From: Candidatus Altimarinota bacterium
GTDB taxonomy: Bacteria; Patescibacteriota; Gracilibacteria; CAIRYL01; GCA-016699755
Length of the DNA stretch: 64,000 bases
Assembly (NCBI GenBank): GCA_963664295.1
Contig: OY760935.1
Span: 544,001 to 608,000, forward strand
Direction: 5' to 3'
In this document: piece by piece, positions 915 through 62,717 of the stretch
Layout of the letters: every line of letters begins with the position of its first letter
How positions within the stretch are numbered: position 1 is the stretch's first letter
The notes under the pieces: model-generated
Told to the model about the DNA's origin: nothing
Databases searched by the model: none
Seen by the model: the letters and a program-made list of their open reading frames with translations, nothing else
Translations under genes and position numbers: made by a program

Positions 915-1140
915 TAAAATAGAATTCTTATATATAAATTGTACAACACACTACCTTAATTTACTTATTTATGCAATATTTTTTTTATAAGTCAAATTAT
1001 AATACATAAAACTATAAAAAGTAGTCTTACGACTTAGCTATAAAAACATTTTAACCACTTAGAAAACTACTAAATTATTTTAAAAAATCGATTTTTACTG
1101 TGTGTAAAAGATCACGATTTTATTATAAATAATTTCCCCT

Positions 1141-1384
1141 CCACTCCGCGCCCTCGTTATTCACTCGGTCGCTCCGTTGCGGGTCGTAATTCTCGCTAAG
1201 CAATTGGAGCGGGTAACGGGAGCTTTTTTGCTTCGCAAAAAACTTCCTCCTCGTCCTCGGAAAGTTCAAAATAAATTTTTCACTTTCACTCGGACTGCGT
1301 CGTCAACGAACCCGAGGCTTCGAGGTAGCCATTTCCTGCTTAACAATGAAATAACCTTGTGGCTTCGCCACAAGAACATTTCAT
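1141..1384 (-). repeat. tRNA-Gly downstream structured module with duplicated tRNA 3' end
   Basis: 17-bp copy of the tRNA 3' end (TCCCGTTACCCGCTCCA) at 1205-1221, 180 bp from the gene; several GC-rich hairpins in between. Confidence 0.8.
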
Positions 1385-13368: not shown

Positions 13369-13443
13369 GGGTGAGTAGCTCAGTGGTAGAGCAGTAGCCT
13401 TTTAAGCTATTGGCCGTGGGTTCGATCCCCACCTCACCCACCA
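13369..13443 (+). tRNA. tRNA-Lys(TTT)
   Basis: GGGTGAG..GTAGC-CT-TTT-AA-GCTAT..GGTTCGATCC..CTCACCC-A-CCA; TTGACT/TAAAAT promoter at 13320-13347. Confidence 0.97.
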
Positions 13444-13632
13444 TTAAAAAAACAGTCCTGCAAAGCAGGAGTGGTCTTTTAATTATGAGTTGGGAGCGAG
13501 CACACAGCCATCTAATTAGCCCGTGGGTGCGGTCTGCAGTGGAGGGCTTTTGCGAAGCAAAACCCGAAACAAAAGACTCGATCCCCACCTCACCCACCAT
13601 TTGAAATGTTCTCATGCGAAACATGAGGTTTT
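13444..13632 (+). repeat. tRNA-Lys downstream module with duplicated tRNA 3' end
   Basis: TCGATCCCCACCTCACCCACCA repeated at 13578-13599 (156-bp period), flanked by hairpins. Confidence 0.8.
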
Positions 13633-13690
13633 AATATTGACAAAAATAAGAAAATAATTAATACTATCTACCTTTTTCGCCTTATCTTAA

Positions 13691-15236: not shown

Positions 15237-15476
15237 TTGCTTTTAAAGGCGTCCGTGATAATTAGTCGCTGCCCTTGAACCCAGAAACAGGGGTTCGATT
15301 CCCCTACGGGCTACCATTGCTTTTAAAGGCGTCCGTGATAATTAGTCGCTGCCCTTGAACCCAGAAACAGGGGTTCGATTCCCCTACGGGCTACCATTGC
15401 TTTTAAAGGCGTCCGTGATAATTAGTCGCTGCCCTTGAACCCAGAAACAGGGGTTCGATTCCCCTACGGGCTACCA
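15237..15476 (+). repeat. Three identical 80-bp tandem units, each ending in the 35-nt 3' part of tRNA-Glu
   Basis: Units at 15237-15316, 15317-15396 and 15397-15476. Confidence 0.95.
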
Positions 15477-47577: not shown

Positions 47578-47825
47578 ACGATTATATAATTTATTGCTAA
47601 TTTTTAAGTTTCTGGAGAACAGTTGCTAAGTCTGCACGGGTTGACCGCTTGGCTAACTGCCCACGATTATATAATTTATTGCTAATTTTTAAGTTTCTGG
47701 AGAACAGTTGCTAAGTCTGCACGGGTTGACCGCTTGGCTAACTGCCCACGATTATATAATTTATTGCTAATTTTTAAGTTTCTGGAGAACAGTTTGCAAA
47801 ATTTATACAAAATTCTAACTGCTCT
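47555..47825 (-). repeat. About 2.8 tandem 85-bp units containing the tRNA-Tyr 5' part
   Basis: Period 85 (47555, 47640, 47725); units form CCA-ended hairpins. Confidence 0.92.
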
Positions 47826-62099: not shown

Positions 62100-62548
62100 A
62101 ATCCAATGAAAAATGCGAGCAAGCCTGAAACGCTCAGGTTTCCTACTCGAACCCACGGGTTCTTATCTCTGTTTCTCATTCGCAGGAGCAAAACCTCGTG
62201 CCTTTGGCACGAGAACTTGCTCCTGGCGGGACACTCGGGTCTCCTACCTTTTTGGGTAAAAATGAGAAGATGCAAAAAAATAGCGAACGCCAGTGAGCGA
62301 GAGGGGTGAATTGGGCGGGCGTGTACCGCCCAAGAGGGGCGACGCTAGCCCCTTATAATTGGCGGAGAGAACGGGATGCTCATTTTTTCGGAGCTTTGCT
62401 CCTCAAAAATAAGGCCTTCTGCGCTCGCTCGGAATTTTGCGCAAGCACAAATTCACTCGCTCGCTTGAGTGTCGAACCCACGGGTTCTTATCTCTGTTTC
62501 TCATTCGCAGGAGCAAAACCTCGTGCCTTTGGCACGAGAACTTGCTCC
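62100..62548 (-). repeat. tRNA-Ser downstream modules
   Basis: 18-bp tRNA 3' end copy at 62360-62377; 83-bp exact direct repeat at 62147-62229 and 62472-62554. Confidence 0.88.
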
Positions 62549-62636
62549 TGGCGGAGAGAACGGGATTCGAACCCGTGGTGACTTTCGCCACACACGCTTT
62601 CCAAGCGTGCGCATTCGACCACTCTGCCATCTCTCC
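62549..62636 (-). tRNA. tRNA-Ser(GGA)
   Basis: GGAGAGA..CACGC-TT-GGA-AA-GCGTG, long variable arm, GGTTCGAATCC, TCTCTCC-G-CCA. Confidence 0.97.
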
Positions 62637-62654: not shown

Positions 62655-62717
62655 TGACTTGCGCACGCTTGTTTTTTGCGTGCTCTATTCATATTGCGAC
62701 CACTCTGCCATCTCTCC
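62655..62717 (-). pseudogene. Degenerate upstream copy of the tRNA-Ser 5' portion
   Basis: First 21 nt identical; anticodon stem GCACGC/GCGTG kept with an A-rich loop; no T-arm. Confidence 0.7.

Follow-up and report, generated by a model that had tools for sequence, protein, structure and literature searches.

Repeat units behind three tRNA genes

Three intact tRNA genes in the window, by which we mean the whole 64,000-nucleotide stretch of DNA analysed here, are each followed directly by a structured repeat unit. The order of parts is constant: the intact tRNA is followed by a hairpin (termed H), an antisense arm (b, then a), a loop, the segment A', an insert and an exact copy of the tRNA tail. 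The parts map as follows.

1205..1221 (-): Gly unit, exact copy of tRNA-Gly positions 60-76
1222..1306 (-): Gly unit, 85-nt insert consisting of a tandem-GA stem and a c(GAA)g hairpin
1307..1314 (-): Gly unit, A', a sense copy of the T-arm 5' half, which pairs with arm a
1316..1345 (-): Gly unit, degenerate copy, in antisense, of the 3' part of tRNA-Gly (arms b, a); borderline, p 0.055, rank 4/37
1346..1384 (-): Gly unit, hairpin H with a GTT/GTT internal loop and a c(GAA)g triloop
1385..1460 (-): host gene tRNA-Gly(TCC), intact
13369..13443 (+): host gene tRNA-Lys(TTT), intact
13444..13599 (+): Lys unit, subtype I, whole
13444-13482 (+): Lys unit, H
13483-13510 (+): Lys unit, antisense arm, then an AT-rich loop
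13521-13528 (+): Lys unit, A'
13529-13577 (+): Lys unit, insert (49 nt)
13578-13599 (+): Lys unit, tRNA copy (positions 55-76)
13600..13640 (+): degenerate second hairpin H after the Lys unit (GTT/GTT)
62147..62229 (-): second copy, exact over 83 nt, of the Ser tail end, H, antisense arm and A'
62360..62548 (-): Ser unit, subtype II, whole
62360-62377 (-): Ser unit, tRNA copy (positions 59-76)
62378-62471 (-): Ser unit, insert (94 nt)
ending at 62472 (-): Ser unit, A'
62482-62509 (-): Ser unit, antisense arm
62510-62548 (-): Ser unit, H
62549..62636 (-): host gene tRNA-Ser(GGA), intact

A preliminary description of this DNA had quoted sequences for the Gly, Lys and Ser modules, and all of them are in place. 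Its periods of 180 (Gly), 156 (Lys) and 189 bp (Ser) were borne out, and the cognate tRNA 3' copies proved exact over 17, 22 and 18 nt, respectively. The antisense copy of the host tRNA tail, which sits between hairpin H and the T-arm half, was absent from that description. The GTT/GTT internal loop, which had been called conserved, is present in 6 of 15 aligned hairpins, and the first Lys hairpin carries AGT/AGT. The second Lys hairpin is likely a remnant of an older unit. At the Ser locus, the second copy differs from the first in the sequence beyond the T-loop half. The Ser hairpin H has a GC-rich outer stem and no T-run, suggesting that H is something other than a plain terminator. We rejected a promoter within the loop of subtype I, the -35/-10 spacing fitting the Ala unit only (by eye).

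Other tRNA-linked repeats lie nearby. Two further hairpin families follow CCA ends at 1120-1204 (-) and 62265-62359 (-). One is GA-rich on the tRNA strand and also occurs after Phe, Lys(CTT) and Gln copies; the other is GA-rich on the template strand and also occurs after Leu(GAG) (three times), Met(CAT) at 844284 and Thr(GGT). Three 80-bp repeats at 15237-15476 (+) each end in the last 35 nt of tRNA-Glu(CTC), and similar arrays of 80-85 bp follow tRNA-Phe and tRNA-His. Repeats of tRNA 5' ends precede tRNA-Tyr (47640-47747, -) and tRNA-Ser(GGA) (62697-62717, -), as well as Leu(GAG), Ser(TGA), Ser(GCT), initiator Met and Gly(GCC).

Two subtypes of unit with antisense arms fitted to their own tRNA

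The host genome is complete (1.215 Mb) and has 37 tRNA genes. Reading all tRNA flanks, we found such a unit behind 15 of them, 3 of the 15 being truncated. The units are 154-189 bp long, cover tRNAs of eight amino acids and all lie on the tRNA strand. The antisense arm scored better than dinucleotide shuffles (p <= 0.02) in 11/15 units, these p values being uncorrected and the units chosen by eye; in 11/15, the unit's own tRNA ranked first or second of 37. Among the remaining tRNAs, 2 of 22 reached z >= 3. In relatives, the arm reached p <= 0.05 in 16 of 21 hand-picked units.

The position at which the tail copy begins separates two subtypes. Copies of subtype I (Lys, Met, Ala, Val; 9 units) begin at positions 55-57. 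For subtype II (Gly, Ser, Arg, Gln), 18 of 19 units have a copy that begins at 59-60, and another 3 units yielded no tail copy in this analysis. A strict subtype II pattern was found in 2 of 301 genomes of the class. A truncated copy of the Gly unit, an orphan with no tRNA tail before it, was also observed 5 kb away from the tRNA (L002, G000:C1:540367-540471).

Inserts are shared between loci and replaced at the T-loop

Over its first 61 nt, the insert is 57-61/61 identical (93-100%) at six unlinked loci (Ser x3, Arg, Gln, Gly), at which the sequence left of the T-loop half is 53-79% alike. Conversely, the pair of units at tRNA-Gln share 99% identity left of the T-loop half and 62% within the insert. 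Together with the inserts shared elsewhere, this indicates that inserts have been replaced between the T-loop halves. The preliminary description had proposed a single element family that inserts at the T-loop or recombines through it; structured units with exchange at the T-loop are indeed what we find, while the presumed uniformity gives way to two subtypes.

Similar units extend beyond the host genome. The Gly(TCC) insert resembles tRNA-Asn and tRNA-Ser units in three records titled Saccharibacteria or Nanosyncoccus, and records titled Gracilibacteria and Saccharibacteria carry the motif of the window's units. Among eight genomes of the family, tRNA-Gly(TCC) is followed by a T-loop unit in three, by other repeats in two and by none in three; the count of three T-loop units was made by eye, a regular expression having flagged two. 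In one relative (L066, G004), the tRNA-Ala(GGC) allele differs from that of its kin. The arm there matches the present tRNA, whereas A' and the tail copy make up a T-stem that is different and self-complementary.

Exact duplication of a tRNA 3' end from the T-loop is typical of integrase islands, and the units could be attL/attR scars of islands that hit the T-loop and then lost their cargo. The exact tail copies of the units, which begin within the T-loop, speak for such an origin. Set against it are the number of tRNAs affected (15/37), the structured inserts common to several isotypes and the antisense arms. We found no integron or phage integrase and no cargo gene in the units, and the one tyrosine recombinase of the host genome lies far from them. 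Such scars are thus very improbable.

An intron-like insert spliced from the T-loop would account for the exact joining of the halves, which restores the T-loop in the Ser and Lys units. The Gly join, however, is 2 nt short, the product would lack the tRNA 5' half, and the inserts, ranging from about 30 to 140 nt, have no catalytic-like core in common. We regard splicing as extremely improbable, and a tRNA or group I intron was rejected, the host tRNAs being intact and no intron family giving a match. Spliced or circular products had been put forward as a check; in contigs from the same sample, none of the joints listed (15 of 26) was an excision or circle joint, although this is a weak test and contigs drop rare variants. 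Two joints were explained otherwise: one that goes back 155 at Lys by the paralogous tRNA-Lys(CTT) locus, and one that skips 194 by the orphan copy.

Folding, covariation and loop types

The Gly unit folded as RNA is more stable than 200/200 shuffles (z -4.1), and folded as DNA together with the tRNA tail it again exceeds 200/200 shuffles (z -5.4). Folded alone, its arm pairs with the unit's own tail copy; at one metagenome locus (L240), the arm fits the copy better than the tRNA. A comparison of 29 distinct related units shows Watson-Crick pairing of the arm in 233 of 261 cells at positions 59-67, beyond which pairing falls sharply, to 10/29 at position 69. The GA at the arm junction is conserved from E. 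coli through the host genome. The claim of covarying stems was upheld. In the insert core stem, both partners differ between units in 6 of 11 pairs. Its covariation score was reached by 0/500 shuffles, which ignore relatedness, and slid controls scored lower.

In the host-genome units, 42 hairpins include 23 triloops (16 GNA/AAA) and 4 tetraloops (0 GNRA/UNCG), compared with 17 GNA/AAA loops in 637 in a shuffle control. The RtT-like set described below includes 69 triloops (33 GNA) and 35 tetraloops (6 GNRA) among 132 hairpins. GCGA outnumbers its complement by 35 to 3. Loop types differ from those of an RNA control (rRNA/tmRNA) at p 0.018, the control being small (28 hairpins). DNA lends particular stability to triloops of the c(GNA)g type and to sheared GA tandems. 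Arm mismatches show no G-T bias toward either strand (17:14, 26:25, 8:6), and there is no bias between leading and lagging strands (9:6 vs 15:7).

These data bear on a neutral origin, in which template switching at palindromes left sense-antisense-sense triplications as relics that were later homogenised by gene conversion. The sense-antisense-sense order, the decay of the distal arm and the orphan and truncated copies fit this origin. Relics would hardly be expected to show the fixed breaks (59-60 in 18/19 subtype II units), the conserved GA at the arm junction, the covarying stems and the sharp 9-nt boundary, and we consider this explanation improbable.

In other genomes the insert core also occurs apart from tRNA 3' ends

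A profile of the insert core found nine full sites in the host genome (five of them training rows), all within units behind tRNAs, besides two partial copies; the shuffled genome gave none. Elsewhere, a model built on the insert region of subtype II matched 11 of 141 genomes of the phylum. Among 17 matches outside the host genome, two belong to one full unit behind tRNA-Cys, one weak match lies behind tRNA-Lys, two lie on the template strand directly against tRNA 5' ends, and twelve have no nearby tRNA; about seven of the twelve show the core motif by eye. In G340 (L441, L453), the template strand carries a GA-rich core, including a GNA-triloop hairpin, directly next to tRNA position 1. Cores of this kind, and those that stand free, are easier to reconcile with DNA than with a trailer RNA of a tRNA. 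The preliminary description had named as refuting that the motifs fail against shuffled intergenic DNA or that a model match non-tRNA intergenic sites equally often; the units withstand this in the host genome only, since elsewhere the insert core also occurs off tRNA 3' ends.

In another genome (G368; L442, L452, L456, L458, L460), free-standing core copies lie in AT-rich stretches, two of them right before an ATG. Among viral sequences, a loose motif gave 120 loci, the only one near a tRNA being a plain tRNA array; a stricter motif gave nine, three of which are units near contig ends, perhaps host flanks. Annotated phages gave no meaningful blast match.

Relationship to the tRNA-linked repeats of E. 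coli

tRNA-linked repeats (TLRs) are defined by an 18-19 bp copy of the 3' end of a tRNA or rRNA gene, directly behind that gene (PMC8144298). E. coli has 22 of them, known since 1978 and described as having no known function (PMC8144298, which also points to Egan and Landy 1978, Rudd 1999, and Bosl and Kersten). The same source reports that they are transcribed and processed, that the rtT and RrA/B/F RNAs are detected, that the RrA/B/F RNAs bind Hfq and CsrA in vitro, and that there is no clear phenotype, an rtT phenotype having been retracted. Raised mobilome coverage has been seen at tyrT/rttR, and such signals at RNA genes were ascribed to RNA/DNA hybrids (bioRxiv 10.1101/2024.07.17.603846).

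A motif derived from the subtype II units of the window gave 65 metagenome loci. Forty-four lie within 260 nt behind a tRNA on the same strand, all on the tRNA strand; six have too little upstream sequence, and among the others are a tmRNA, tRNAs that ARAGORN had missed and genes matched by chance. Behind the tmRNA 3' end (L259) lies a unit of the same design. tRNA-Gln(TTG) hosts 35 of the 42 units parsed from the metagenome loci and four other loci.

The gathering cut-off of the Rfam RtT family (RF00391), 45 bits, was passed by 17 of 27 hand-picked motif loci (5/9 + 12/18). One motif locus matched, by blast, annotated RtT in 4,741 of 5,426 E. coli genomes. Subtype I gave no E. coli blast match, and neither the window nor the host genome matched RtT at any threshold tried. 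L244 scored 27.3 bits against the RtT model (E 0.15), below the cut-off, and models built without RtT members matched E. coli RtT weakly (E 0.035 and E 0.27). Kinship to RtT, which the preliminary description had not recognised, thus rests on layout and a shared core, connected via intermediate loci. Our literature search, thin on subscription journals, returned nothing on such units in Patescibacteria and no description of the antisense arm or of T-loop exchange.

RNA detection in E. coli (PMC8144298) is one reason to consider a functional RNA trailer, a small RNA freed by processing of the CCA copy, whose arm and own tail copy would mimic the top half of a tRNA as a decoy, sponge or processing aid. 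The 15 genome units and the 44 tRNA-adjacent metagenome loci all lie on the tRNA strand, the Gly unit alone folds its arm onto its own copy, and the L240 arm prefers the copy over the tRNA. Weighing against such a trailer are the lack of RNA-type tetraloops in the genome's units and of a wobble bias, the core on the template strand in G340, the patchy presence and truncated copies, and the phenotype record (none clear, that of rtT retracted; PMC8144298). We therefore consider it possible but somewhat unlikely.

Search for an enzyme

No mobilising enzyme was found. Reverse transcriptase was found in 0/7 genomes, IS110 recombinase in 0/5 genomes, and no Y1 transposase or RAYT was found in the host genome. 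An IS110 bridge RNA or a Y1-RAYT element was rejected, the gene not being found. A reverse-transcription stop at position 58, an idea taken from retroviral biology, would leave an 18-nt copy; it was rejected, with no reverse transcriptase in the 7 genomes.

Small GIY-YIG genes occur near tRNAs. Upstream of tRNA-Pro(TGG), two tandem 321-bp units (G000:C1:482712-483353; L039, L149) each combine a copy of the tRNA 5' part, in which the anticodon arm is replaced by a short GC hairpin, with an 82-aa GIY-YIG gene. A tRNA is present in 26 of the 29 best homologue loci of the class, and one homologue lies inside a 16S gene (L139). As a mover of the T-loop units, this tRNA-linked small GIY-YIG was rejected, because its repeat layout differs and it was not found in two unit-rich kin. 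In the draft genomes G003 and G004, which have many units, GIY-YIG frames are only long (694-777 aa). Elsewhere in the host genome (G000:C1:622300-623000; L041), a GIY-YIG gene is flanked by REP/SRM-like hairpins; nine related sites occur elsewhere, several in a 217-bp array near 268,600-269,600.

A proposed fold-back cassette on single-stranded DNA

Layout, cognate arms, insert sharing, insert replacement, tandem and truncated copies and patchy presence among kin are all observed. Our leading explanation, held with moderate confidence, is that the unit is an RtT-like tRNA-linked repeat acting as a gene-less fold-back cassette on single-stranded DNA, copied and swapped at the T-loop. On an exposed strand, about 9 nt of the arm would pair with tRNA positions 59-67, of either the gene or the copy. 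GAACC would pair with GGTTC, and the two T-loop halves would be held together as a structured junction. Nick-and-repair or recombination at this junction, by a host or trans-acting enzyme, could then duplicate the tail and exchange inserts while leaving the tRNA intact.

A cassette at the DNA level is suggested by the shared inserts, the swapping at the T-loop, the GNA/AAA triloops, the GA tandems and the core on the template strand. Counting against it, no mobilising enzyme was found and no excision or circle joint appeared among the joints listed, every T-loop unit lies on the transcribed strand, the E. coli TLRs are transcribed and processed (PMC8144298), and the arm mismatches and replication strands show no bias. 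Insert identity could also result from ordinary gene conversion. On balance, we lean, at middling confidence, toward the DNA fold-back cassette over a functional RNA.

A broader proposal, which we put forward as speculative and unlikely, is that TLRs, including E. coli RtT, are unrecognised self-guided, gene-less mobile elements of single-stranded DNA. Their re-written antisense arm would target the T-loop of their own tRNA or tmRNA, where a host enzyme would insert or exchange cassettes and leave the gene unharmed. With 15 units in a tiny genome, arms fitted to their own tRNA and swapped inserts, the design is not an enterobacterial oddity. It offers testable handles for E. coli in the 9-nt arm, the triloops and the GA junction. 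If the DNA reading is true, a family now annotated as 'sRNA' would represent mobile DNA of a new, target-guided kind.

Comparison with known systems

Integron attC sites and the folded attP of CTX phage regain a double-stranded site when a single strand folds back imperfectly on itself. The units share this fold-back principle, but their target is the T-loop of a tRNA and they carry no cargo. tRNA-targeting islands with a crossover in the T-loop duplicate the tRNA tail from within the T-loop; unlike them, the window units lack an integrase and cargo and have a conserved internal structure and an antisense arm.

REP/BIME sequences with RAYT and NTS/SRM sequences with Ssn GIY-YIG nucleases resemble the units in being strand-specific hairpins that contain no gene and are presumed to work on single-stranded DNA (PMC11893778). 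They differ in having neither host-specific arms nor a tRNA-tail duplication, and no linked nuclease was found for the window units; the main text of the Ssn paper contains 0 mentions of tRNA (PMC11893778).

The closest parallels are with the E. coli TLR/RtT (tyrT/tyrV; RF00391, rttR), which likewise lies directly behind the tRNA in tandem copies of similar size. RtT ends in an exact tail copy of 18-19 nt (17, 18 and 22 nt in the window) and shares the antisense arm, the GAGAA(C/G)C, GGTTCG and CGAG-N-GA(A/G) motifs and the order of parts. In contrast to RtT, the window inserts diverge past the CGAG motif and a long hairpin precedes the arm, and the host genome has a second subtype (break at 55-57) and units behind 15 tRNAs of eight amino acids in 1.2 Mb. 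We therefore class the window units with the tRNA-linked repeats, as a distant variant, and not as a new intron.
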